Shown here in pieces: positions 34,792 through 46,841 of a DNA stretch of 46,841 nt (positions are counted from its first letter, which is position 1; each line of letters starts with the position of its first letter). A program made the position numbers and the translations under genes. Location: positions 1-46,841 of the IMG/VR virus record IMGVR_UViG_2648501797_000005. One strand, 5' to 3'. The notes below the pieces were generated by a model that worked only from the letters and a program-made list of their open reading frames with translations, was not told the DNA's origin and made no database searches. This DNA comes from a virus (lineage: Duplodnaviria; Heunggongvirae; Uroviricota; Caudoviricetes).

Positions 34792-35508
<717 letters not shown>

Positions 35509-35585: not shown

Positions 35586-35741
35586 ATGAACACGTTCAGC
35601 ATAATCGCGATACCTTTTTTTGCCCTTTCAGTGGTTCTGTTGACTCTTGGCGCTACCAGGAAGAACCAAGCCAGCTTCATCGTTGGCGGCGTGTTTATGG
35701 CGTCATGCGTGGTTAATGCCATTATCGGCATGTCTCTTTGA
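35586..35741 (+). CDS. small two-TM membrane peptide (51 aa) in the rex slot
   Basis: GAGG Shine-Dalgarno before ATG; MNTFSIIAIPFFALSVVLLTLGATRKNQASFIVGGVFMASCVVNAIIGMSL. Confidence 0.45.
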   Translation: MNTFSIIAIPFFALSVVLLTLGATRKNQASFIVGGVFMASCVVNAIIGMSL

Positions 35742-35933
35742 GCGCTATGAGATCAGGCATCCTCGTTACTTTGTCATGTGTGACAGCCTGGTATGCACTC
35801 TGCGAGCTTTGATGTGGTTTACCACTTTAATAGTCACCGTATCACTAAACTGATTAGCTTTACTCATACTCTTGTGGATTCGCTATTTCTGATGTCAATG
35901 CAAAAAAATACTAAGGAAACAAAAAGGATACTT

Positions 35934-36200
35934 ATGTCAGATAACACTATTAAAATCATACCTCAGCACATGACCGCCACATCAGTTCTTATTACGCCTG
36001 ATCGTGCTGAAACAATCATTACTTTTTACCGCCATGAATTTGAGCATCACATGCAGCCTGATGAGCAAGGAAAGAATAGCTTCCAAGTAAAAGTTGAGTT
36101 GACCCCTAACATGTCAGTCTCAATGAGCCCGGATCAAGCTGTTGCATTAGTAAAATCATTACAGGTAGCTCTCAGGGATAATGGGCTATGGAAAGACTGA
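35934..36200 (+). CDS. hypothetical soluble protein (88 aa) in the rex slot
   Basis: AGGA Shine-Dalgarno before ATG 35934 (track ORF opens at 35793); stop overlaps the next gene start. Confidence 0.45.
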   Translation: MSDNTIKIIPQHMTATSVLITPDRAETIITFYRHEFEHHMQPDEQGKNSFQVKVELTPNMSVSMSPDQAVALVKSLQVALRDNGLWKD

Positions 36201-36838
36201 AGCCAGTTTCTTCAGTTCAACCTACCTCAGGAACAACATCATCAGTTCTTCCAAGTATTATAGTTAGTGCAACCCTAGCAGCGACAACCGTTTCTCCTTA
36301 TGGGGATCCATCTCAGTACCAAAGTATTGGTATTGATGCTAAGGTATCAAATAGAGTTTCATACGCCATGGACGAAACGGGTTTGCGCCCAAGTAAGGAA
36401 GATGTAGCGATGAAGAGTGATACCCTGGAGGTAAGCGTGAGCGGAATGTCCAGAGAAGAACTTGACGCAAAGCTTTCACAAAACAAATCAGAGGTAGAGT
36501 CTATTGCTGCGGAAATGCGTCGCGAATCAGCTGACTTTAAAACCTATTATACTCAGCAATTTTCTTCTATTGAGAGAGGTATTGCTGAAATTAAAGGTGA
36601 AATCGGCGGTTTGAAAACGGGACTTACAACGACTCAGTGGGCGATGGCCGTTGGCTTGACTTTAGTTACTGTGATTCTGTCTGGCGTGATGTTAGCCTCA
36701 AGTTGGATTATCTCCGGCAATGACAAGTCACCATCAGTAACCAGCCCGGCTCCAATTATAATACAGGTACCGACACAGCAACCATTAACGAGCGCTCCAA
36801 CTAACCAATCGTCATCACAACAAGCTCCTAAGCAATAA
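36188..36838 (+). CDS. bitopic membrane protein (216 aa): coiled coil, single TM, Pro/Ser/Thr/Gln-rich tail
   Basis: Start overlaps upstream stop; TM WAMAVGLTLVTVILSGVMLASSWII; same strand and presumably same transcript as cI. Confidence 0.55.
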   Translation: MERLKPVSSVQPTSGTTSSVLPSIIVSATLAATTVSPYGDPSQYQSIGIDAKVSNRVSYAMDETGLRPSKEDVAMKSDTLEVSVSGMSREELDAKLSQNKSEVESIAAEMRRESADFKTYYTQQFSSIERGIAEIKGEIGGLKTGLTTTQWAMAVGLTLVTVILSGVMLASSWIISGNDKSPSVTSPAPIIIQVPTQQPLTSAPTNQSSSQQAPKQ

Positions 36839-36840
36839 AT

Positions 36841-36869
36841 AAACCCGGCCACCGCGCCGGGTTTTCTTT
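36841..36869 (+). terminator. intrinsic terminator closing the cI-cassette transcript
   Basis: ACCCGGCC...GCCGGGT hairpin followed by TTTTCTTT. Confidence 0.55.
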
Positions 36870-37020
36870 GCCTCACGTTCGCCCCAAAACACATAACCAA
36901 TTGTATTTATTTGAAAATTAATAGATACAACTCACTAAACATCGCAATTCAGATCTCTCGATCACCTCCCAAGCCACACACCCCTGCAAAAAAATAAATC
37001 TATATAAAAAACATACAGAT

Positions 37021-37083
37021 AACCATCTGCGGTGATAAATTATCTCTGGCGGTGTTGACATAAATACCACTGGCGGTGATACT
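37021..37083. promoter_or_regulatory. left operator OL3/OL2/OL1 with pL (-35 TTGACA 37055..37060, -10 GATACT 37078..37083)
   Basis: AACCATCTGCGGTGATA, TATCTCTGGCGGTGTTG, TACCACTGGCGGTGATA match lambda OL sites. Confidence 0.85.
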
Positions 37084-37151
37084 AAACACATCAGCAGGAC
37101 GCACTACTCACCAGGGCGGTGAATATACAACGATTCGAATATGAATCTACG

Positions 37152-37166
37152 GCGCTGACAAAGCGC
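37152..37166 (+). promoter_or_regulatory. nutL boxB, P22-type
   Basis: GCGCTGACAAAGCGC hairpin in the pL leader, matching the P22 boxB as I recall it. Confidence 0.5.
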
Positions 37167-37331
37167 AATAACCAAAGTGAACTTTGGGGTGTGGTGAAGG
37201 GTTCATGGACGGGAATATGTCGCACGTAAAGCGGCGAGGCCTGCGGGACTATTGCCGAATTGAAGTAGGCCGAAACAGGTCGAAATGGGTCTCCCACCTA
37301 CCACACCACCAAAGTTCATCAGGAGGTCTAT

Positions 37332-37715
37332 ATGACACGCAGAACTCAGTTCAAAGGCAATTCACGTTCTCGTCGTCGTGAGCGTTTAAAGGCAAAGGCA
37401 TTAGCTAACGGCGTACTGGCCCGCGAAGAAGCAATAAGTTCAGAAGTATTACACCGCCCTACTCTAAGCAGAGCGCAGATTCAGGCTAAAGGTACTCACG
37501 AAACGCCTGAGCGCATAGAAGACGCTAAGCCAATTAAGTTCATGGCACAGGACGTGATCTGGCAACAGAAAGAATACAGACGCAATCTGGAGAGAGCGGC
37601 CATTGTGTACGCGAATGAGTTTGGGCATAGGCAACCAGAAACTGGTGTATGTCTTCCAAATGTAGCTCTTTACGCGGCAGGCTACAGGAAATCAAAACAA
37701 CTGACAGCAAGGTGA
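37332..37715 (+). CDS. N-family antiterminator (P22 gene 24-like, not lambda N)
   Basis: First gene after pL; Arg-rich N-terminus (RRTQFKGNSRSRRRERLKAK); C-terminus VALYAAGYRKSKQLTAR resembles P22 gp24. Confidence 0.7.
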   Translation: MTRRTQFKGNSRSRRRERLKAKALANGVLAREEAISSEVLHRPTLSRAQIQAKGTHETPERIEDAKPIKFMAQDVIWQQKEYRRNLERAAIVYANEFGHRQPETGVCLPNVALYAAGYRKSKQLTAR

Positions 37716-37843
37716 CTTGTGTTGGTCGCCAGAAAATGAAATTAGGCAGCAAACCACTTATTTGAGGTGATATATGGAAGAAGAATTTGAAGAGTTCGAA
37801 GAGCATCCGCAGGATGTGATGGAACAATACCATGATTATCCGT

Positions 37844-38044
37844 ATGACTACGACTATTGATAAGAATCAATGGTGTGGACAATTCAAGCGATGCAATGGA
37901 TGCAAGCTGCAATCGGAATGCATGGTTAAGCCTGAAGAAATGTTTCCTGTAATGGAGAATGGGAAATATGTCGATAAATGGGCAATACGAACGACGGCAA
38001 TGATTGCCAGAGAACTTGGTAAACAGAATAACAAGGCTGCCTGA
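37844..38044 (+). CDS. ral: Ral restriction-alleviation protein
   Basis: MTTTIDKNQWCGQFKRCNGCKLQSECMVKPEEMFPVME... matches lambda Ral as recalled. Confidence 0.85.
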   Translation: MTTTIDKNQWCGQFKRCNGCKLQSECMVKPEEMFPVMENGKYVDKWAIRTTAMIARELGKQNNKAA

Positions 38045-38180
38045 TGGTGGCCTTTATTTTTGGCATAAACAACAGAATAAACACAGCACTGTGTATTCAT
38101 TCCAATGAGTGAATACACGGAGCAATGTCGCTCGTAACTAAACAGGAGCCGACTTGTTCTGATTATTGGAAATCTTCTTT

Positions 38181-38206
38181 GCCCTCCAGTGTGAGGGCAT
38201 TTTTTT
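38181..38206 (+). terminator. intrinsic terminator-like hairpin within the pL operon
   Basis: GCCCTC-cagtgt-GAGGGC followed by ATTTTTTTG. Confidence 0.4.
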
Positions 38207-38218
38207 GATGGAGGATAT

Positions 38219-39187
38219 ATGAGTGAAGTAACAGATTTAGTTGTTATTGAAAAAGCAAATGCAATGACTGTATTTCAGTCTGCCGACCAGATTGAAGAAA
38301 TCCTTCAAAGGGTTGAACGTGAAGTTATGTCCTTTGTGCCTGATATCACAACGGCAAAGGGCAGAAAGGAGATCGCTTCTCTGGCGTATAAAGTTGCGCA
38401 GACGAAAACATATCTCGATGGTCTTGGCAAAGACCTTGTTGCTGAACTGAAGGAAATTCCAAAGCTAATTGATGCCAACCGCAAGACAGTGCGTGATCGC
38501 CTTGATGAGCTGAAAGCCAAGGCGCGCCAGCCTCTTACTGATTATGAGGAGGAACAGGCACGGATTAAAGCCGAAGAAGAAGCTAAGGCAGCAGCTGAAG
38601 CTCTCGCAAAGCAAATTGAGTCTGACCATGAAATAGCGATTTTGATGGATCGCGAATTTGACCGCCAAAGAGAAGAGGCAAGACTCAAAGCGGAGCGGGA
38701 AAAGCGAGAGCATGAAGAACGCTTAAAAAGAGAAGCTGAAGAGAAAGCCAGAGCAGAAGCCGAAGCAAAGGCAAAAGCCGAAATTGAAGCAGCAGCAAGG
38801 CGAGAAGCAGAAGCTAAGGCCGCAGCGGAACGTGCAGAGCGTGAACGCATTGAAGCCGAGCAACGAGCACTGCGCGAAGCAAAAGAGGCAGCAGAACGAG
38901 CTGAAAGAGAAAAGCAGGCTGCAATTGAAGCAGAACGCAGAAAAGCACAGGAGGAGGCTGAACGAATCCGGCGCGAGGCTGAAGCAAAAGAGCAAGCCAG
39001 AATAGCAGAAGAAAAAAGAATCAAGGAAGAAGAAGAGCGTAGAGCAAAGGATAAAGCTCACCGGAAAGAAGTAAATAACAAAATACTTGCTGACCTTATC
39101 AAGGTTGGCGCATCAGAAGATGTTGCTAAAAATATCATAACAGCCATCGTAAAAGGCGAAGTATTCGCAACAAAAATAACCTACTAA
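38219..39187 (+). CDS. hypothetical protein (322 aa) with long Glu/Arg/Lys/Ala-rich coiled coil
   Basis: GGAGG Shine-Dalgarno; globular N- and C-terminal segments around a roughly 180-aa charged repeat region. Confidence 0.5.
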   Translation: MSEVTDLVVIEKANAMTVFQSADQIEEILQRVEREVMSFVPDITTAKGRKEIASLAYKVAQTKTYLDGLGKDLVAELKEIPKLIDANRKTVRDRLDELKAKARQPLTDYEEEQARIKAEEEAKAAAEALAKQIESDHEIAILMDREFDRQREEARLKAEREKREHEERLKREAEEKARAEAEAKAKAEIEAAARREAEAKAAAERAERERIEAEQRALREAKEAAERAEREKQAAIEAERRKAQEEAERIRREAEAKEQARIAEEKRIKEEEERRAKDKAHRKEVNNKILADLIKVGASEDVAKNIITAIVKGEVFATKITY

Positions 39188-39211
39188 TAAAACCAACATA
39201 AGGAACCACCC

Positions 39212-39343
39212 ATGATTTACGCAATCGCGGGAGGCGCTCGCATGGGTGCCTTCCAATTAAATGAATCTTTACTTGAACGAATCACCCGTAAATTACGTGA
39301 CGGATGGAAAAGAGTTGAGGTCTTATTATGCGCAATGAAATAG
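39212..39343 (+). CDS. cIII: CIII (FtsH inhibitor)
   Basis: MIYAIAGG...ESLLERITRKLRDGWKR central helix matches lambda CIII. Confidence 0.7.
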   Translation: MIYAIAGGARMGAFQLNESLLERITRKLRDGWKRVEVLLCAMK

Positions 39344-39480
39344 CCATCAATCACCAGATGCTTCGTGCAGCACAAAATAAAGCAGTAATAGCCAGATTTA
39401 TTGGTGATTCCAAAATGTGGCTTGAAGCAAATAAAGCGATGAAATCAGCTATCAACCTTCCGTGGTATCGCAGGAAATGA
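39328..39480 (+). CDS. Kil-like small protein (50 aa)
   Basis: Overlaps the cIII 3' end as lambda kil does; ARFIGDSKM resembles my recollection of lambda Kil. Confidence 0.4.
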   Translation: MRNEIAINHQMLRAAQNKAVIARFIGDSKMWLEANKAMKSAINLPWYRRK

Positions 39481-39555
39481 GTTTTACAGATAACTGGTCA
39501 GACGAAGAATTCATTCGTCAGATGAAAGAATTAATCGGTAACGAAGGAGATATTC

Positions 39556-39726
39556 ATGTCACTTGCAACCACAGTGAAGGAGAGCAAGTTACAGAGACGC
39601 ATGTACACGCAGAAAGCTCTCTGGTATCGCCATAATGGCGACCGCGAAGGAATGCGGGTATGCCTTAATTTGTCCCGAGTCGAAGTATTAAATCAGCGTT
39701 ATTTCCTTGGGCCGTGTCCATTCTGA
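39556..39726 (+). CDS. hypothetical small protein (56 aa)
   Basis: Strong AAGGAGAT Shine-Dalgarno; ends 8 nt before the annealing-protein gene. Confidence 0.35.
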   Translation: MSLATTVKESKLQRRMYTQKALWYRHNGDREGMRVCLNLSRVEVLNQRYFLGPCPF

Positions 39727-39734
39727 GGTGAATT

Positions 39735-40442
39735 ATGGATTTGAATAAATTCGATGAGCCATTCAGCCCTGAAGATATCGAATGGCGAATACAGCAAAGC
39801 GGTAAAACACGCGATGGCAAAGTGTGGGCTATGGTGCTGGCTTATGTCACGAACCGGGCAATCATGAAACGCCTGGACGATGTTTGCGGCAAAGCAGGAT
39901 GGCGCAATGAATACCGCGATATTCCCAACAACGGCGGCGTTGAATGCGGCATATCAATAAAGATTGATTCCGAATGGGTAACCAAATGGGATGCTGCTGA
40001 AAACACGCAGGTAGAAGCCGTCAAAGGTGGTCGTTCCGGTGCAATGAAGCGCGCTGCCGTTCAGTGGGGAATCGGTCGGTATCTGTATAACCTTGAGGAA
40101 GGTTTCGCACAAACATCTCTCGATAAAAAGCAGGGATGGCACAGGGCAAAACTCAAGGATGGAACAGGATTTTACTGGCTCCCTCCATCGCTGCCGGGAT
40201 GGGCAATACCAGCATCAGATAACAAACCATCACCAGAAAATACCAACCAGAAATCTCCATCGGTTGACTGCGAACAAATCCTGAAAGACTTCAGCGATTA
40301 TGTGTCAACAGAAACTGACAAGAAAAAACTCATCGAGCGTTATCAGCGTGACTGGCAATTAATGGCTGGCAACGAGGAGGCGCAGGCTAAATGCGTTCAG
40401 GTAATGAACATCAGAGTTAACGAACTAAAACAGGCGGCATAA
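39735..40442 (+). CDS. single-strand annealing protein, Rad52-like (Sak-type)
   Basis: EDIEWR...GWRNEY...KRAAVQWGIGRYLYNLEE pattern resembles Rad52-family phage proteins; occupies the bet position. Confidence 0.55.
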   Translation: MDLNKFDEPFSPEDIEWRIQQSGKTRDGKVWAMVLAYVTNRAIMKRLDDVCGKAGWRNEYRDIPNNGGVECGISIKIDSEWVTKWDAAENTQVEAVKGGRSGAMKRAAVQWGIGRYLYNLEEGFAQTSLDKKQGWHRAKLKDGTGFYWLPPSLPGWAIPASDNKPSPENTNQKSPSVDCEQILKDFSDYVSTETDKKKLIERYQRDWQLMAGNEEAQAKCVQVMNIRVNELKQAA

Positions 40443-40958
40443 ATGGCAAGCAGAGGCGTAAATAAGGTGATCATTATTGGTCGCCTTGGGCATGATCCAG
40501 AAATCAGATATTCACCATCAGGAACGGCATTTGCAAACCTTACAGTTGCTACGTCAGAACAATGGCGTGATAAGCAAACTGGAGAGCAAAAGGAGCAGAC
40601 GGAGTGGCACCGCGTGGTAATGAGCGGAAAACTGGCAGAAATTGCCAGCGAATATCTGCGAAAAGGCTCTGAGGTTTATCTTGAAGGAAAATTGCGGACA
40701 AGAAAATGGCAGGATCAAAGCGGACAGGATCGGTTCACTACCGAAGTCATCGTGGGCGTTGGTGGAACCATGCAAATGCTTGGTGGCAAGCAAGGAGGCA
40801 ATGAACAGTCTTCACCTCAGCGAAATGACGGTCAGCAACAAAGACAGCAACCTCAGCAGCAAGGGAATCACAGCGAACCACCTATGGATTTTGACGACGA
40901 TATCCCCTTTGCACCAGTAACTCTCCCTTTCCCTCGTCACGCTATTCACGCAATTTAA
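40443..40958 (+). CDS. ssb: single-stranded DNA-binding protein
   Basis: OB-fold N-terminus, Gly/Gln-rich linker, C-terminal DFDDDIPF tip. Confidence 0.9.
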
Positions 40959-40966
40959 GGACTTAC

Positions 40967-41515
40967 ATGAATCACTTGATGGTTGACCTTGAAACAATGG
41001 GCAACGGGCCATACGCGCCAGTTATTTCTATTGGGGCGGTATTCTTTGACCCGAATACCGGAGAAACAGGAGAAGAGTTCTCGGTAAATATCTCGCTTGA
41101 GTCATCAATGCGATATCGGGCGCGTCCTGACGCTTCAACGATTTTATGGTGGCTGGAACAGAGTGAAGAAGCCAGAAAATCGCTAACCAGCAACACTCAG
41201 GAGCTTTCAACGGCTCTTTCATGGTTATCTGAATTCATCATAAAGAACGCCAACCACAAACTCGTTCAGGTTTGGGGGAATGGAGCATCATTTGACTGCG
41301 TTATTCTCCGCAACAGTTATTCGCTGACAGGGCAGCCAGTTCCGTGGCAGTGGTGGAATGACCGCGACGTAAGAACAATCGTCGAACTTGGGAAGGTAAT
41401 AGGATTCGATCCTAAGCGAGATATGCCATTCAAAGGAACTCGCCACAACGCGCTTGATGATGCCATCCACCAAGCCAAATACGTTTCAGCGATCTGGAAA
41501 AAGTTAGCTAAATAA
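40967..41515 (+). CDS. 3'-5' exonuclease, DnaQ/DEDDh-like
   Basis: N-terminal MVDLETMG motif and C-terminal H...D motif (HNALDDA). Confidence 0.65.
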   Translation: MNHLMVDLETMGNGPYAPVISIGAVFFDPNTGETGEEFSVNISLESSMRYRARPDASTILWWLEQSEEARKSLTSNTQELSTALSWLSEFIIKNANHKLVQVWGNGASFDCVILRNSYSLTGQPVPWQWWNDRDVRTIVELGKVIGFDPKRDMPFKGTRHNALDDAIHQAKYVSAIWKKLAK

Positions 41516-41531
41516 TCAACAGGAGAAAACC

Positions 41532-41828
41532 ATGCCAGCGCCTCTATATGGTGCGGACGACCCGCGCCGCTGTTCCGGCAATTCCATATCGGAGGTGCTG
41601 GAAAATATCAAGAATAATCTCGACGCGTTTCTTGCTCTGCCACCAGAAACAAAAGAAGAACGGAAGTACCGACGCGATATACAACTCGCAGAAAAACAGG
41701 AAAAAGACCGAATAAACGAAACATCAATCCGACCATTCCGCAAATCCACATATACCCACTTCCCTGAATATATCGACCCGCGCCTGCGTAATTACCGCTC
41801 ACGCTATGGCGCTATCAGTAATGACTGA
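41532..41828 (+). CDS. hypothetical early protein (98 aa)
   Basis: ORF in the co-directional early-left operon. Confidence 0.4.
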
Positions 41829-42003
41829 GGAATTTACCATGAGAGGACTTGCATACAATCCCGGCATTCTTCCGGCAGAAATGATTATTCGCCAACGCGT
41901 AAAGCCAATGCCATCGAGAGAGGAATTGCTTAAGAGAAATTCTTTTCCGTCAGTAAATCAAAACAAATATCTGAATGCGATGTGGCGGAGTGGGAAGAAA
42001 TGA
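41806..42003 (+). CDS. hypothetical small protein (65 aa)
   Basis: Overlapping-start operon ORF. Confidence 0.3.
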
Positions 42004-42440
42004 AACAAATGTCACTAATTGAGATGGATGGTTTTCTGAAAGGTAAATGCATCCCACGAGATTTAAAGGTTAACGAAACAAACGCTGAATATCTGGTGCG
42101 TAAATTTGCTGAAGCGGAGGCCAAGTGCGCGGCGCTAGCAGCGGAGAATGCGGGGCTGAAGTCTGGCGATATGGACGAAATCAATGTTATCAACCGTGGA
42201 GGGCAGGCATATTGCGTAAAAGATGGAGTGCAAGTTAATCCCATGTATGCAAGAGGGTGGAATGACTATCGCGCAAAGTCTCTGCAATCAGACACCACAG
42301 CCACCGATGCTTTCCTGGCTGAAGTGTGGGCTCAGGGTGTGGAGATGCTCTACGCAAGCAGAGCGGCTCAGTGGTCTGATGAATTGTTAGCTGAGCTTAA
42401 TGAATTCGCCACTCAGCTTCGCGAAGGAGGTGCGGCATGA
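41982..42440 (+). CDS. hypothetical early protein (152 aa)
   Basis: Operon ORF. Confidence 0.4.
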
Positions 42441-42673
42441 GCAATCAGATTAATCCTGCCATAAGAATTGATGCAGATGGTAATGCCAGAGACGTCGACA
42501 ACGCTTACGAGGAGGGAATCTACGCCGCCGTAATAGGCCTCGATGTAACTGACAATCCGTATTCAACAGATGATCCACTCAACCGTAAGCTTTGGCTAAA
42601 GGCTTTCGCTGGGGTCAAAAGTGGAAAGATCAGAAGCGCCTCCCAGTTACGCAAAGGAGGTGAGCAAAAATGA
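42437..42673 (+). CDS. Rmf-fold-like small protein (78 aa)
   Basis: GIYAAVIG...NPY...W pattern resembles ribosome modulation factor-like phage proteins. Confidence 0.4.
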   Translation: MSNQINPAIRIDADGNARDVDNAYEEGIYAAVIGLDVTDNPYSTDDPLNRKLWLKAFAGVKSGKIRSASQLRKGGEQK

Positions 42674-42987
42674 CAATCACAAAACAACGAGTAGAAGAAA
42701 TCATATCCAGCATTGAAATGTATGGACATGGTGCAGGGTATACCGTTGACGAGGTTTATGACCTGGCTGTACTGGTGCTGAATTTATCAAATATCGCAAA
42801 CCTGAAGCGATACGAGCTTGATATGGATGGTTGTGACTCGTGCGGTCAGGATTGTGGCGCTGACATGACTGAAGATTCTGATGGCGATTATGTCCTGTTT
42901 GATGACGTGGTTAAGTTGTTTGAGTTTGATACAACCACTCAGAAGCTAGAAAGCCCAGCAAAGGAGGCAGCCAGTGAGCGAGATTGA
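42670..42987 (+). CDS. hypothetical acidic protein (105 aa)
   Basis: Operon ORF; Cys-rich DGCDSCGQDCG segment. Confidence 0.4.
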   Translation: MTITKQRVEEIISSIEMYGHGAGYTVDEVYDLAVLVLNLSNIANLKRYELDMDGCDSCGQDCGADMTEDSDGDYVLFDDVVKLFEFDTTTQKLESPAKEAASERD

Positions 42988-43513
42988 CTATCAGGCACTG
43001 CGTGAGGCGGCGCAGAACGCGAAAGATTTAGGTGGGATTAAGAATTACAAGCGAGGCGAGCAAGCTGTTGCCGAATTTGAGTCCCGGATAACGCCACACA
43101 TTGTGCTGGCGCTTCTGGATGAACGGGAAAGAAACCAGCAATACATCAAACACCGCGACCAGGAGAACGAGAATATTGCACTAACGGTTGGGAGGCTGCG
43201 TGTGGAGCTGGAAGCAGCAAAAAAACGCATAGCAGAACTGGAAGCCGAACCTGTAAGCCAAACTTACAAGTTGAACGAGCTGTCGGGCAACTCTCCGGTA
43301 ACTCCGGATGGTTGGATAAGCTGTAGTGAGCGGATGCCAGAGGACGGTCAGCACGTAATTATTTTATGTGATGGCGCATTCGTTCTTTATGCGCAATATC
43401 GAGACGGTGAGTTTTTTGATGTCGTCCGCAATGGTGAGGAGTTCTTCGAAACGCAGAGCCGCAATGTAACCGACTGGATGCCTCTACCAGAACCGCCGCA
43501 GGAGGTGAAGTGA
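42974..43513 (+). CDS. DUF551-like early protein (179 aa)
   Basis: C-terminal WMPLPEPP typical of DUF551 early-region proteins. Confidence 0.45.
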   Translation: MSEIDYQALREAAQNAKDLGGIKNYKRGEQAVAEFESRITPHIVLALLDERERNQQYIKHRDQENENIALTVGRLRVELEAAKKRIAELEAEPVSQTYKLNELSGNSPVTPDGWISCSERMPEDGQHVIILCDGAFVLYAQYRDGEFFDVVRNGEEFFETQSRNVTDWMPLPEPPQEVK

Positions 43514-43791
43514 TGGACTCCTTCGCGAAATATACGATTATTGACTGGATAGCATTCCTTCAGGTTTTGCTCATCTGGTTTTATATGGCTTACAGGAGTG
43601 GACAGTGGATTGTCAGTGTAGCCTGTAGAAAGGGATGGCGTTGGTGGAACCGAAAGAATAAAAAAGCACTGGCATTGGATTCGTTTTACGAAGCATTCAA
43701 TCTTAACAGCCTTCAGCCTGGTTCTGTCATTGTAGTCACCACTCAAAGCGGCATGACCATTCAGATTCATAAACCAAAAGAGGAAAAATGA
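43513..43791 (+). CDS. hypothetical membrane-associated protein (92 aa)
   Basis: GGAGGTGA Shine-Dalgarno; hydrophobic N-terminal segment. Confidence 0.4.
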   Translation: MDSFAKYTIIDWIAFLQVLLIWFYMAYRSGQWIVSVACRKGWRWWNRKNKKALALDSFYEAFNLNSLQPGSVIVVTTQSGMTIQIHKPKEEK

Positions 43792-43877
43792 TGTGGCCTA
43801 TATGTGTTAATTGCGGACGGATGTGCCTATCTGGATGGTGCCGAAAGTGCGACAAATGCACGAAGCAAAGACAATAA
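43788..43877 (+). CDS. Cys-rich micro-protein (29 aa), possible zinc ribbon
   Basis: MMWPICVNCGRMCLSGWCRKCDKCTKQRQ with GAGGA Shine-Dalgarno. Confidence 0.3.
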   Translation: MMWPICVNCGRMCLSGWCRKCDKCTKQRQ

Positions 43878-43949
43878 CAATCCTCGCACTCGCGGGGATT
43901 TCTTTTATCTGAACTCGCTACGGCGAGTTTTGTTTTATGGAGATGATAA

Positions 43950-44117
43950 ATGCACTTCCGAGTCACAGGTGAATGGAATGGAGAGCCATTCAACAGAGTT
44001 ATCGAAGCAGAGGACATCAATGACTGCTATGCCCACTGGATGCTGTGGGCGCAGATAGCACATGCAGACGTAACCAATATTCGAATTGAAGAACTGAAAG
44101 AACACCAAGCCGCCTGA
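43950..44117 (+). CDS. small protein (55 aa) upstream of xis, orf55-like position
   Basis: ORF followed immediately by a hairpin terminator. Confidence 0.35.
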   Translation: MHFRVTGEWNGEPFNRVIEAEDINDCYAHWMLWAQIAHADVTNIRIEELKEHQAA

Positions 44118-44130
44118 TGGCGGTTTTTTC
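44107..44130 (+). terminator. hairpin plus T6 upstream of xis
   Basis: CCGCC-tgat-GGCGG followed by TTTTTT. Confidence 0.35.
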
Positions 44131-44156
44131 TTGCGTGTAATTGCGGAGACTTTGCG

Positions 44157-44375
44157 ATGTACTTAACACTTCAGGAGTGGAACGCACGCCAGCGACGTCC
44201 AAGAAGCCTTGAAACAGTTCGTCGATGGGTACGCGAGTGCAGGATATTCCCTCCTCCGGTTAAGGATGGAAGAGAGTATCTGTTCCACGAATCAGCGGTA
44301 AAGGTTGACTTAAATCGACCAGTAACAGGTAGCCTTTTGAAGAGGATCAGAAATGGGAAGAAGGCGAATTCATGA
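44157..44375 (+). CDS. xis: excisionase
   Basis: 72 aa, matches lambda Xis as recalled. Confidence 0.9.
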   Translation: MYLTLQEWNARQRRPRSLETVRRWVRECRIFPPPVKDGREYLFHESAVKVDLNRPVTGSLLKRIRNGKKANS

Positions 44376-45423
44376 GCGCCGGGATTTACCCCCTAACCTT
44401 TATATAAGAAACAATGGATATTACTGCTACAGGGACCCAAGGACGGGTAAAGAGTTTGGATTAGGCCGAGACAGGCGAATCGCAATCACTGAAGCTATAC
44501 AGGCCAACATTGAGTTATTTTCAGGACACAAACACAAGCCTCTGACAGCGAGAATCAACAGTGATAATTCCGTTACGTTACATTCATGGCTTGATCGCTA
44601 CGAAAAAATCCTGGCCAGCAGAGGAATCAAGCAGAAGACACTCATAAATTACATGAGCAAAATTAAAGCAATAAGGAGGGGTCTGCCTGATGCTCCACTT
44701 GAAGACATCACCACAAAAGAAATTGCGGCAATGCTCAATGGATACATAGACGAGGGCAAGGCGGCGTCAGCCAAGTTAATCAGATCAACACTGAGCGATG
44801 CATTCCGAGAGGCAATAGCTGAAGGCCATATAACAACAAACCCGGTCGCTGCCACTCGCGCAGCAAAATCAGAGGTAAGGAGATCAAGACTTACGGCTGA
44901 CGAATACCTGAAAATTTATCAAGCAGCAGAATCATCACCATGTTGGTTAAGACTTGCAATGGAACTGGCTGTTGTTACCGGGCAACGAGTTGGTGATTTA
45001 TGCGAAATGAAGTGGTCTGATATCGTAGATGGATATCTTTATGTCGAGCAAAGCAAAACAGGAGTAAAAATTGCCATCCCAACAGCATTGCATGTTGATG
45101 TTCTCGGAATATCAATGAAGGAAACACTTGATAAATGCAAAAAGATTCTTGGCGGAGAAACCATAATTGCATCTACTCGTCGTGAACCGCTTTCATCCGG
45201 CACAGTATCAAGGTATTTTATGCGCGCACGAAAAGCATCAGGTCTTTCCTTCGAAGGGGATCCGCCAACCTTTCACGAGTTGCGCAGTTTGTCTGCAAGA
45301 CTCTATGAGAAGCAGATAAGCGATAAATTTGCTCAACATCTTCTCGGGCATAAGTCGGACACCATGGCATCACAGTATCGTGATGACAGAGGCAGGGAGT
45401 GGGACAAAATTGAAATCAAATAA
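44353..45423 (+). CDS. int: integrase (tyrosine recombinase)
   Basis: 356 aa, near-identical to lambda Int as recalled; overlaps xis 3' end as in lambda. Confidence 0.95.
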   Translation: MGRRRIHERRDLPPNLYIRNNGYYCYRDPRTGKEFGLGRDRRIAITEAIQANIELFSGHKHKPLTARINSDNSVTLHSWLDRYEKILASRGIKQKTLINYMSKIKAIRRGLPDAPLEDITTKEIAAMLNGYIDEGKAASAKLIRSTLSDAFREAIAEGHITTNPVAATRAAKSEVRRSRLTADEYLKIYQAAESSPCWLRLAMELAVVTGQRVGDLCEMKWSDIVDGYLYVEQSKTGVKIAIPTALHVDVLGISMKETLDKCKKILGGETIIASTRREPLSSGTVSRYFMRARKASGLSFEGDPPTFHELRSLSARLYEKQISDKFAQHLLGHKSDTMASQYRDDRGREWDKIEIK

Positions 45424-45496
45424 TGATTTTATTTTGACTGATAGTGACCTGTTCGTTGCAACAAATTGATAAGCAATGCTTTTTTATAATGCCAAC
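45424..45496. other. attP P' arm
   Basis: Reverse complement of lambda P' arm ...GCATTGCTTATCAATTTGTTGCAACGAACAGGTCACTATCAGTCAAAATAAAATCATTA. Confidence 0.7.
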
Positions 45497-45511
45497 TTAG
45501 TATAAAAAAGC
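45497..45511. other. att core of the B-O-P' junction (attL in lambda convention)
   Basis: TTAGTATAAAAAAGC followed by AGGCTTCAA (B arm of attB-lambda). Confidence 0.8.
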
Positions 45512-45557
45512 AGGCTTCAACGGATTCATTTTTCTATTTCATAGCCCGGAGCAACCT

Positions 45558-46841
45558 GTGAACACATTTTCAGTTTCCCGTCTGGCGCTGGCATTGGCTT
45601 TTGGCGTGACGCTGACCGCCTGTAGCTCAACCCCGCCCGATCAACGTCCTTCTGATCAAACCGCGCCTGGTACCTCTTCTCGCCCGATTCTGTCGGCAAA
45701 AGAAGCGCAGAATTTCGATGCTCAACACTATTTTGCATCCCTGACACCAGGTGCTGCAGCGTGGAATCCTTCCCCGATTACCCTGCCTGCGCAACCTGAC
45801 TTTGTTGTCGGCCCGGCGGGCACTCAAGGTGTAACGCATACCACGATTCAGGCGGCGGTAGATGCGGCAATTATCAAGCGTACCAACAAGCGCCAGTATA
45901 TTGCCGTGATGCCTGGTGAGTATCAGGGAACGGTATATGTCCCTGCCGCTCCGGGTGGAATTACTCTGTACGGTACAGGTGAAAAACCGATTGATGTGAA
46001 GATTGGGCTTTCCCTTGATGGTGGCATGAGCCCTGCCGACTGGCGTCACGACGTCAACCCGCGCGGCAAATATATGCCAGGTAAACCAGCGTGGTATATG
46101 TACGATAGCTGCCAGAGCAAACGCAGCGACAGTATCGGTGTTCTCTGCTCTGCGGTCTTCTGGTCACAAAACAATGGCCTGCAACTGCAAAATCTGACCA
46201 TCGAAAACACGCTGGGCGATAGCGTAGATGCAGGTAACCATCCGGCGGTGGCACTGCGTACTGATGGTGACCAGGTACAGATTAACAACGTTAACATTCT
46301 CGGTCGTCAGAACACCTTCTTTGTCACCAACAGCGGTGTGCAGAACCGTCTGGAAACGAATCGTCAGCCGCGTACGCTGGTGACCAACAGCTACATTGAA
46401 GGGGATGTGGATATCGTTTCTGGTCGCGGCGCAGTGGTGTTCGATAACACCGAATTCCGCGTGGTGAACTCACGTACTCAGCAAGAAGCGTATGTGTTTG
46501 CACCGGCTACGCTGTCCAACATTTACTACGGTTTCCTCGCCGTAAACAGCCGTTTCAATGCTTTCGGTGATGGTGTGGCGCAACTGGGCCGCTCGCTGGA
46601 TGTTGATGCCAATACCAACGGTCAGGTGGTGATCCGTGATAGCGCCATCAACGAAGGTTTTAACACGGCTAAACCGTGGGCCGATGCGGTGATCTCTAAT
46701 CGTCCGTTTGCGGGTAATACCGGCAGCGTAGATGATAACGACGAAATACAGCGCAATCTGAATGACACTAACTACAACCGCATGTGGGAATACAATAACC
46801 GCGGCGTGGGTAGTAAAGTGGTTGCAGAGGCGAAGAAGTAA
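45558..46841 (+). CDS. ybhC: host lipoprotein, pectinesterase-fold family (YbhC-like)
   Basis: Signal peptide plus lipobox LTACSS; located where ybhC lies next to attB-lambda; stop codon is the last triplet of the window. Confidence 0.7.
   Translation: MNTFSVSRLALALAFGVTLTACSSTPPDQRPSDQTAPGTSSRPILSAKEAQNFDAQHYFASLTPGAAAWNPSPITLPAQPDFVVGPAGTQGVTHTTIQAAVDAAIIKRTNKRQYIAVMPGEYQGTVYVPAAPGGITLYGTGEKPIDVKIGLSLDGGMSPADWRHDVNPRGKYMPGKPAWYMYDSCQSKRSDSIGVLCSAVFWSQNNGLQLQNLTIENTLGDSVDAGNHPAVALRTDGDQVQINNVNILGRQNTFFVTNSGVQNRLETNRQPRTLVTNSYIEGDVDIVSGRGAVVFDNTEFRVVNSRTQQEAYVFAPATLSNIYYGFLAVNSRFNAFGDGVAQLGRSLDVDANTNGQVVIRDSAINEGFNTAKPWADAVISNRPFAGNTGSVDDNDEIQRNLNDTNYNRMWEYNNRGVGSKVVAEAKK

Follow-up and report, generated by a model that had tools for sequence, protein, structure and literature searches.

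Nine genes between the exonuclease and xis genes

The 46,841 nucleotides of the IMG/VR virus record IMGVR_UViG_2648501797_000005 (positions 1 to 46,841; Caudoviricetes), here referred to as the window, contain a complete 45.4-kb lambda-immunity prophage, and the analysis concerns nine small open reading frames (ORF1 to ORF9; 29-179 amino acids, aa) that lie on the + strand at 41532-44117, between the exonuclease and xis genes of this prophage. By gene order the nine ORFs lie promoter-distally in the pL (early-left) transcription unit. They fall into three groups: (i) abc2 and a DUF2737 gene (ORF1 and ORF2), (ii) six translationally coupled ea genes at 42000-43877 (ORF3 to ORF8), and (iii) a homologue of lambda orf55 (ORF9) that lies in lambda DNA behind two hairpins. 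The block is an ordinary mosaic variant of the well-catalogued lambdoid ea/exo-xis region in a new combination. The analysis establishes that the genes are real, to which families they belong, where the modules meet, and that there is coupling and selection, while every biochemical activity discussed below is one that we infer.

An earlier note on this DNA, made without database searches, had described nine small and tightly packed ORFs. All nine are present, each preceded by a Shine-Dalgarno sequence at the right distance, and three of the starts are revised. The start of ORF2 is most likely at 41839 rather than 41806: its counterparts in P22, HK106 and RefSeq have a length of 54-56 aa, and residue 12 is where the matches to Pfam and PHROG set in. 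Therefore, abc2 and ORF2 are separated by a gap of 10 nt in place of an overlap. ORF3 most likely starts at the ATG at 42000 and not at 41982, which gives an ATGA overlap with the ORF2 stop and agrees with the start assigned by the Prokaryotic Genome Annotation Pipeline (PGAP) in Escherichia coli FJ_Ec_21. ORF7 starts at the ATG at 43513 and is 92 aa in length. With these starts, the junctions between the first eight genes range from -14 to +10 nt, including ATGA, GTGA and TGATG overlaps, and ORF9 is set off by a 72-nt gap holding two strong hairpins. From the Shine-Dalgarno sites and the overlapping junctions, the six ea genes are translationally coupled. No sigma-70-like promoter was found on the + strand inside the block, and no Rfam family was found across 36500-46841 at E 0.1 or better.

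Abc2 and DUF2737 at the end of the recombination module

ORF1 (41532-41828; Shine-Dalgarno sequence AGGAG) is abc2 and encodes a 98-aa anti-RecBCD protein 2. The protein matches PF11043 (E 1.2e-43; score of 147.6 bits, cut-off 25; residues 1-98 aligned to profile positions 1-97) and phrog_656 (E 4e-49), and it aligns over its full length with the structurally characterised P22 Abc2 (PDB 8B1T/8B1U; 98 versus 97 aa; E 4e-40). It is 69% identical to P22 Abc2 and 73% identical to HK106 Abc2. The N-terminal 17 residues are identical to those of P22 Abc2, and the IRPFRK motif, including Pro68, and the C-terminus are likewise preserved, whereas the substitutions cluster in residues ~23-66, i.e. in the helices that contact RecC in the structure. 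Both genes adjoin phage recombination genes; P22 also has the partner gene abc1, whereas the window does not. P22 Abc2 binds RecC of RecBCD, the host protein PpiB engages Pro68, and the response to Chi is altered (PMC9836394). Abc2 is the only product of the nine with a known mechanism.

ORF2 (41839-42003) encodes a 54-aa DUF2737 protein with an isoelectric point (pI) of 11 (PF10930, E 5e-31, 106.8 bits against a cut-off of 25; phrog_1117), which is a homologue of P22 orf56 (75% identical) and of HK97 gp38. A full-text literature search on DUF2737 and on DUF4752, the family of ORF7, found a functional study of neither. When DUF2737 was used to recover loci from IMG/VR, 80 of 80 had abc2 as the next gene upstream, at the same spacing, and the adjacency recurs in P22, HK106 and FJ_Ec_21. 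In these loci the DUF2737 protein is 96-100% identical, and Abc2 is 67-99% identical to the window allele (median 74%); only five carry that allele at 95% identity or more. Alleles of abc2 are thus swapped, or diverge fast, beside a near-fixed neighbour.

Upstream, abc2 adjoins the genes for a Rad52-type annealase (a single-strand annealing protein, SAP), an SSB and an exonuclease in the early-left operon, in an order as in P22 and HK106. Because a survey of lambdoid Rec modules counts Abc2 and DnaQ-like 3'-5' nucleases among the parts of such modules (PMC12315714), we group abc2 with these three upstream genes, as the last functional one of the module, and not with the genes of unassigned function that follow it. 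The earlier note had treated the nine genes as a single operon; this description does not hold, since abc2 and the DUF2737 gene belong to the recombination module and ORF9 belongs to a lambda segment behind two hairpins.

Ea-type accessory genes

ORF3 (42000-42440) encodes a 146-aa acidic mosaic protein (phrog_614, E 5e-49). Its residues 41-150 match the C-terminal part of phrog_368, the N-terminal part of which matches ORF6; because phrog_368 joins an ORF3-like C-terminal part to an ORF6-like N-terminal part, the C-terminal part of ORF3 is common to Ea22-type proteins. Over 129 aa, ORF3 shares 81% identity with a RefSeq protein of E. coli FJ_Ec_21; it matches P22 EaE weakly and has no match in Pfam or PDB. 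The RefSeq/PGAP name of the FJ_Ec_21 homologue (locus L001, 3098-3559) is HNH endonuclease. We rejected this assignment for ORF3, as neither protein has a Pfam match and the name looks like an annotation error.

ORF5 (42670-42987) encodes a 105-aa strongly acidic protein with a pI of 4.1 (phrog_3126, E 3e-65), for which 247 clusters were found, every one of them named 'hypothetical'. Copies that are 72-85% identical are present in the virulent Salmonella and E. coli siphoviruses Seszw, Segz, Sa179lw, S192, KFS-SE2 and Vi II-E1. An AlphaFold2 model of ORF5 from a 27-sequence alignment has a mean predicted local distance difference test (pLDDT) score of 51.1, too poor for a fold search.

ORF6 (42974-43513) encodes a 179-aa Ea22-type protein in which an Ead/Ea22 N-terminal region with a coiled coil (PF13935, residues 2-88, E 1e-19, 71.9 bits against a gathering score of 27) is followed by DUF551 (PF04448, residues 113-176, E 3.7e-21, 76.2 bits against a gathering score of 22). 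The earlier note had called it a DUF551-like protein, correctly for the C-terminal half. The N-terminus is 59-60% identical to that of lambda Ea22 (residues 1-81/88) and the C-terminus resembles P22 EaA. The dimerisation domain at the C-terminus of lambda-type Ea22, for which there is a nuclear magnetic resonance structure, is not in ORF6, its C-terminal half being DUF551, and a PDB search with ORF6 matched no such domain. The combination of an Ea22 part with DUF551 is the architecture described as Ea22_V2 in Shiga toxin (Stx) phages (PMC10834534). Ea22 of lambda and Stx phages is tetrameric and has a pro-lysogenic effect (PMC7093339, PMC10834534).

ORF7 (43513-43791) encodes a DUF4752 protein (PF15944, E 2.6e-36, 124 bits against 27; phrog_667) that is 99% identical to HK106 gp31. 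The hydrophobic 92-aa protein of the earlier note is this protein; its hydrophobicity resides in a single N-terminal segment (Kyte-Doolittle 19-residue maximum of 1.78 at residues 8-26), which is probably membrane-spanning. After the DUF4752 gene, related phages carry one of two genes, either the 29-aa ORF (ORF8) or a gene for an ASCH-domain protein. PDB sequence searches with ORF3, ORF4, ORF5 (as a profile), ORF6, ORF7 and ORF9 gave nothing or spurious matches to W-rich WD40 proteins, and a literature search on the names of the P22 ea genes returned only noise.

A rare Rmf/CrpP-like protein

ORF4 (42437-42673) encodes a rare 78-aa protein with an acidic Rmf/CrpP-like core (NAYEEG...DNPY...NRKLWLKgF). 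It has the spaced motif A-Y-x-x-G...G...(D/C)-N/x-P-Y...W-L-x-G-(F/W), ~36 residues in length and with a predicted helix-loop-helix, that marks the Rmf/CrpP fold (PF04957, NF041886, NF041887), and differs from this fold by an extra N-terminal RIDxDGNxR hairpin. The earlier note had proposed an Rmf-fold-like protein; the likeness is there, at scores below the thresholds of the models (PF04957, 19.7 bits against 27.9; NF041886, 21.9 against 28). Similarly, 13 of the 14 members of the ORF4 family match an Rmf/CrpP model at E 0.01 or better, all of them under the cut-off, and the hhalign probability between ORF4 and E. coli Rmf is only 8.6%. The core of ORF4 has a pI of 4.1 as opposed to 10.8 for E. 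coli Rmf. Because the motif core is acidic, Rmf-like binding to rRNA is unlikely, and we rejected an Rmf-like action on the ribosome as the leading idea. An AlphaFold2 model from a 14-sequence alignment has helices at residues 20-34 and 47-62, and its mean pLDDT of 51.3 is too poor for a fold search. No PHROG matches ORF4, and a literature search on CrpP/Rmf in phages found nothing relevant.

Among 5.8 billion proteins, the ORF4 family is confined to 13 clusters, and when 1.84 billion representatives were searched exhaustively with a profile, 10 clusters reached E 1e-3 or better. Five IMG/VR contigs, one phage record and, of 5,426 complete E. coli genomes, three carry the gene. A ratio of non-synonymous to synonymous polymorphism (pN/pS) of 0.22-0.37 shows that purifying selection acts on it. 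Relatives occur in other arrays: in a prophage of Atlantibacter hermannii in the nin region, after a DnaB-type helicase gene, and in ~44-kb phage contigs in a long array of small early genes that includes DUF551 and DUF2737 genes. A Phage_phiTE_015 gene lies near the ORF4 relatives in both settings. The ORF4-family profile also matched a metagenomic protein of 1317 aa (P0140) with at least five Rmf/CrpP-like repeats (AYxxGxxAxxxGxxxxDNPY...WxxGW).

A cysteine-rich micro-gene

ORF8 (43788-43877) encodes the cysteine-rich 29-aa peptide that the earlier note had pointed out, with the core MWPICxxCGRxCxxxWCxKCDK. The gene is coupled to the DUF4752 gene by an ATGA overlap and in lambdoid prophages always follows it. 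Homologues of 24-29 aa with a Shine-Dalgarno sequence of their own are present in the virulent phages Deseoctovirus C1, Skatevirus KFS-SE2, Swiduovirus CF-SP1 and the Citrobacter myovirus Tr1, most of them unannotated. By a degenerate DNA pattern, 75 IMG/VR contigs were found to carry the gene, which encodes 19 variants of the peptide in them, and so was only one of 185,579 species-representative genomes, that of Kluyvera sichuanensis. Neither Pfam nor PHROG has a match to ORF8.

For an ORF of this size it has to be asked whether it is a gene at all, and more generally whether some of the nine ORFs, in particular ORF8 and the 5' extensions of ORF2 and ORF3, are chance open frames. The ORF8 DNA is nearly invariant among lambdoid copies, with few differences that are mostly non-synonymous singletons, PGAP leaves the ORF without annotation in FJ_Ec_21, and the extended starts of ORF2 (41806) and ORF3 (41982) have no support from homologues. 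Against this, across four unrelated phage lineages the ORF8 homologues have retained the frame, the five cysteines, the Shine-Dalgarno sequence and a stop 2-7 codons past the motif. The five cysteines are invariant in the family, and pN/pS is 0.07-0.35 with synonymous sites near saturation, as measured with the homologues from virulent phages, the lambdoid copies alone being too invariant. The remaining ORFs either match protein families at E < 1e-19 or, in the case of ORF4, are under purifying selection. By comparison, five antisense ORFs and one + strand ORF that overlaps the block in another frame (43804-44058) match nothing in PHROGs. Chance frames among the nine are therefore largely excluded and we regard them as very improbable; ORF8 is a real micro-gene under purifying selection that is restricted to enterobacterial phages.

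The distal end is lambda DNA

From position 43874, three bases before the ORF8 stop, a 527-nt stretch is 96.8% identical to the lambda DNA just after ea8.5, which places a mosaic junction at the end of ORF8 and makes ORF9 part of a lambda orf55-xis-int segment. Two terminator-like hairpins open this segment: the first (43879-43900; 9-bp stem followed by a T-run) directly follows the ORF8 stop, and the second (43911-43930; 8-bp stem followed by a T-run) lies 20 nt upstream of orf55. The 79-nt region with both hairpins folds at -27.3 kcal/mol (z -5.2), and in lambda both hairpins likewise lie between ea8.5 and orf55. ORF9 (43950-44117) encodes a 55-aa homologue of lambda Orf55 (lambdap35; phrog_676, E 1e-39), 94.5% identical over 55 aa to lambda NP_597778 and encoded in the same position upstream of xis. 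A third terminator-like hairpin (44107-44126; z -2.5) spans the orf55 stop upstream of xis and is weaker than the other two. The sole published idea about the function of Orf55 is a speculative model as a T7 Gp2-like modulator of RNA polymerase (PMC8614690).

In total, eight of the nine products were placed in catalogued families, all except ORF4, with ORF8 counted in spite of its lack of a Pfam or PHROG match. The earlier note had stated that most products are not recognisable, which in this form is overstated. It is right in the sense that six or seven of the products have no known function; it had overlooked the already characterised Abc2 and also missed the identities of ORF2 as DUF2737, of the N-terminal half of ORF6 as Ead/Ea22 and of ORF9 as lambda orf55.

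Mosaicism and the closest known systems

In no phage record and in none of the 5,426 complete E. coli genomes does as much as 80% of 41400-44400 occur together at a single place; 576 phage records and 3,573 of these genomes contain parts of this interval. One IMG/VR contig is 99.7% identical over 39212-45511.

The ea region of P22, HK97 and HK022 (in P22: erf-abc1-abc2-orf56-eaE-orf45-eaF-eaD-eaI-eaA-eaG-eaC-xis-int) has the same early-left position and direction. In P22, the order of abc2 and the DUF2737 gene (orf56) and the 10-nt spacer between them are identical to those in the window, and, as in the window, the region contains Ea22/EaD-type and DUF551 (EaA C-terminus) proteins and consists of tightly coupled small genes that end at xis-int. 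The two regions differ in that (i) P22 has Erf and Arf, whereas the window has the Rad52-type annealase, SSB and 3'-5' exonuclease, (ii) most P22 ea genes are different cassettes, ORF4, ORF5, DUF4752 and ORF8 being absent from P22, and (iii) the distal end of P22 is eaC-xis-int, whereas that of the window is lambda DNA with orf55-xis-int. In lambda and Stx phages, the exo-xis region (orf60a, orf63, orf61, orf73, ea22, ea8.5, orf55) occupies the same map position between the recombination genes and xis. It shares an Ea22-type protein with the window, in Stx phages with the Ea22 and DUF551 architecture of ORF6 (Ea22_V2), and lambda matches the window at 95-97% identity in orf55 and its two upstream hairpins.

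A proposed mosaic of three modules in the pL transcript

Based on these data, we suggest with considerable confidence that the N-antiterminated pL transcript of a lambda-immunity prophage has this interval as its promoter-distal part, and that the interval is a mosaic of three modules: (i) abc2 and the DUF2737 gene close the recombination module. By homology with P22 Abc2, the protein would bind RecC together with host PpiB at Pro68 and block the Chi response, and therefore, we propose, DNA ends would be open to the phage Rad52-type annealase, SSB and 3'-5' exonuclease. (ii) The six coupled, non-essential ea genes would be cassettes that are shuffled horizontally, and their small products, mostly acidic or anchored in the membrane, most likely bind components of the host soon after infection or induction. 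Among them, the Ea22-type protein ORF6 would, by analogy with its lambda and Stx relatives, probably bias the lysis-lysogeny decision and act as an oligomeric coiled-coil scaffold, whereas ORF5 and ORF8 would have to work in lytic growth because strictly virulent phages carry both. (iii) The DNA from 43874 onward is a lambda segment, of which the hairpins, orf55, xis and int are expected to be reached only by N-modified polymerase. For ORF2, ORF3, ORF4, ORF5, ORF7 and ORF8, small exchangeable non-essential early proteins that bind host targets is the most likely description.

Several points weigh against parts of this proposal. Transcription from pL and read-through of the hairpins are drawn by analogy with lambda. 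Binding of RecC by the window Abc2 is assumed for a protein that is only 69-74% identical to the studied alleles, with the differences mostly in the central helices. The recombination partner is a Rad52-type annealase rather than Erf, and only its C-terminal 79 residues are Erf-like. Moreover, the DUF2737 gene is seen without an Abc2 Pfam match in the ~44-kb phage contigs; therefore, its pairing with abc2 may reflect linkage and not a shared function. Finally, family membership is all that was obtained for six of the products, and the AlphaFold2 models reached a pLDDT of only 51. With both the 80-of-80 adjacency and these contigs at hand, we rejected as unproven the idea that the DUF2737 protein is an obligatory Abc2 partner or a replacement for Abc1.

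The likeness to the lambda and Phi24B exo-xis genes raises the possibility that the block is mainly a developmental-control region that tunes the lysis-lysogeny decision, the efficiency of induction and host physiology such as cell division, transcription and the stress response. The block has the position between recombination genes and xis that these genes have in lambda, ORF9 is the homologue of an Orf55 protein modelled as an RNA polymerase modulator (PMC8614690), and ORF6 has the Ea22 N-terminal and coiled-coil part of proteins with a published pro-lysogenic effect (PMC7093339, PMC10834534). However, the exo-xis core genes orf60a, orf63 and orf61 and also ea8.5 were not found by tblastn of the lambda proteins against the whole window, and the C-terminal domain of Ea22, reported in the literature to be needed with the rest of the protein, is replaced by DUF551 in ORF6. 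Also, strictly virulent phages, in which ORF5 and ORF8 occur, have no lysogeny decision to tune. The Ea22-type gene alone thus has support for a developmental role, and for ORF5 and ORF8 the evidence contradicts such a role; for the block at large we hold this explanation to be possible and less probable than not.

Alternatively, the block could be an anti-defence island in which ORF3, ORF4, ORF5, ORF7, ORF8 and ORF9 are mostly inhibitors of specific host immune systems. The earlier note had expected host-takeover and anti-defence functions here, which is borne out for Abc2 as an anti-RecBCD protein; for the other genes nothing of the kind was found in this analysis. The idea draws on the presence of the anti-restriction protein Ral and of Abc2 on the same transcript and on several products that are small and strongly acidic like DNA-mimic inhibitors (ORF5 with a pI of 4.1; ORF3, ORF6 and ORF9 with pI values of 4.7-4.9). 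The genes also move one by one, as cassettes, between temperate and virulent phages and between different accessory arrays, and such a patchy distribution of single cassettes is typical of counter-defence genes. Yet no similarity to characterised inhibitors was found in Pfam, NCBIfam, PHROGs or PDB, and the relatives for which experiments exist are limited to Ea22 and the lambda exo-xis genes, which influence lysogenisation and induction and not immunity. PADLOC gave zero matches in the block; its library consists of defence proteins and is therefore blind to anti-defence proteins. Published work on the equivalent region of lambda and Stx phages indicates modulation of the lysis-lysogeny decision rather than anti-defence (PMC7093339, PMC10834534). 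We consider an anti-defence island doubtful, and favor the three-module mosaic.

Within the mosaic, ORF5 and ORF8 are common to temperate lambdoid phages and strictly virulent enterobacterial phages, and ORF4 moves between early-left, nin and other early arrays. It is conceivable, and in our estimate unlikely, that the ORF8 peptide, ORF5 and ORF4 are uncharacterised small host-takeover or counter-defence effectors that are exchanged among phages of different lifestyles. In that case ORF8 would encode a zinc-knuckle peptide that Pfam, PHROGs and most genome annotations lack, and ORF4 would be related to a ribosome-hibernation factor, with its charge inverted and with a target other than rRNA. 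The three genes are cheap and well-defined candidates for screens that look for host-directed functions among phage accessory genes. Taken as a whole, the block matters little, its one understood gene, abc2, being already well studied. Its value for annotation lies in the three corrected start codons, the assignment of abc2 and the DUF2737 gene to the recombination module and the placement of the lambda junction at the end of ORF8, to which the cysteine-rich micro-gene, the rare Rmf/CrpP-like gene and the abc2-DUF2737 linkage add minor novelties.

Prophage setting and neighbouring genes

The placement by the earlier note within the early-left part of a lambdoid phage, between the exonuclease gene and xis, is supported from both sides of the block. 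The lambda att core GCTTTTTTATACTAA occurs twice in the window, at 91-105 and at 45497-45511, where no occurrence is expected by chance; therefore, the whole prophage lies within the window. It is integrated at lambda attB beside ybhC (45558 onward). A lambda-type cI gene (34795-35508) on the + strand accompanies the early-left genes, which on this strand are those for the N peptide (37332-37715), the anti-restriction protein Ral (37832-38044), a cIII homologue (~39212-39361), the Rad52-type annealase (39735-40442; PF04098, E 5e-26), the SSB (40443-40958; PF00436, E 1e-38) and the Rv2179c/DnaQ-like 3'-5' exonuclease (40967-41515; PF16473, E 6e-73). Downstream of the block and on the same strand, lambda-type xis (44157-44375) and int (44353-45423) encode proteins that are 97% identical to lambda Xis and 98.6% identical to lambda Int, respectively.

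Three further observations concern these neighbours. Just after cI, at the place of rexA/rexB in lambda, three + strand ORFs (35586-36838) encode a hydrophobic protein of 51 aa, one of 135 aa and one of 216 aa that has a hydrophobic stretch at its C-terminus; all three lack a significant Pfam match, and together they may form a prophage-expressed exclusion or defence cassette. Between ral and cIII, a + strand ORF of 322 aa (38219-39187) without a Pfam match encodes a protein very rich in E, K, A and R with long charged repeats, which is probably a coiled coil. The annealase is chimeric, with a Rad52_Rad22 N-terminal domain and a stretch of 79 residues at its end that is 62% identical to the C-terminus of P22 Erf.

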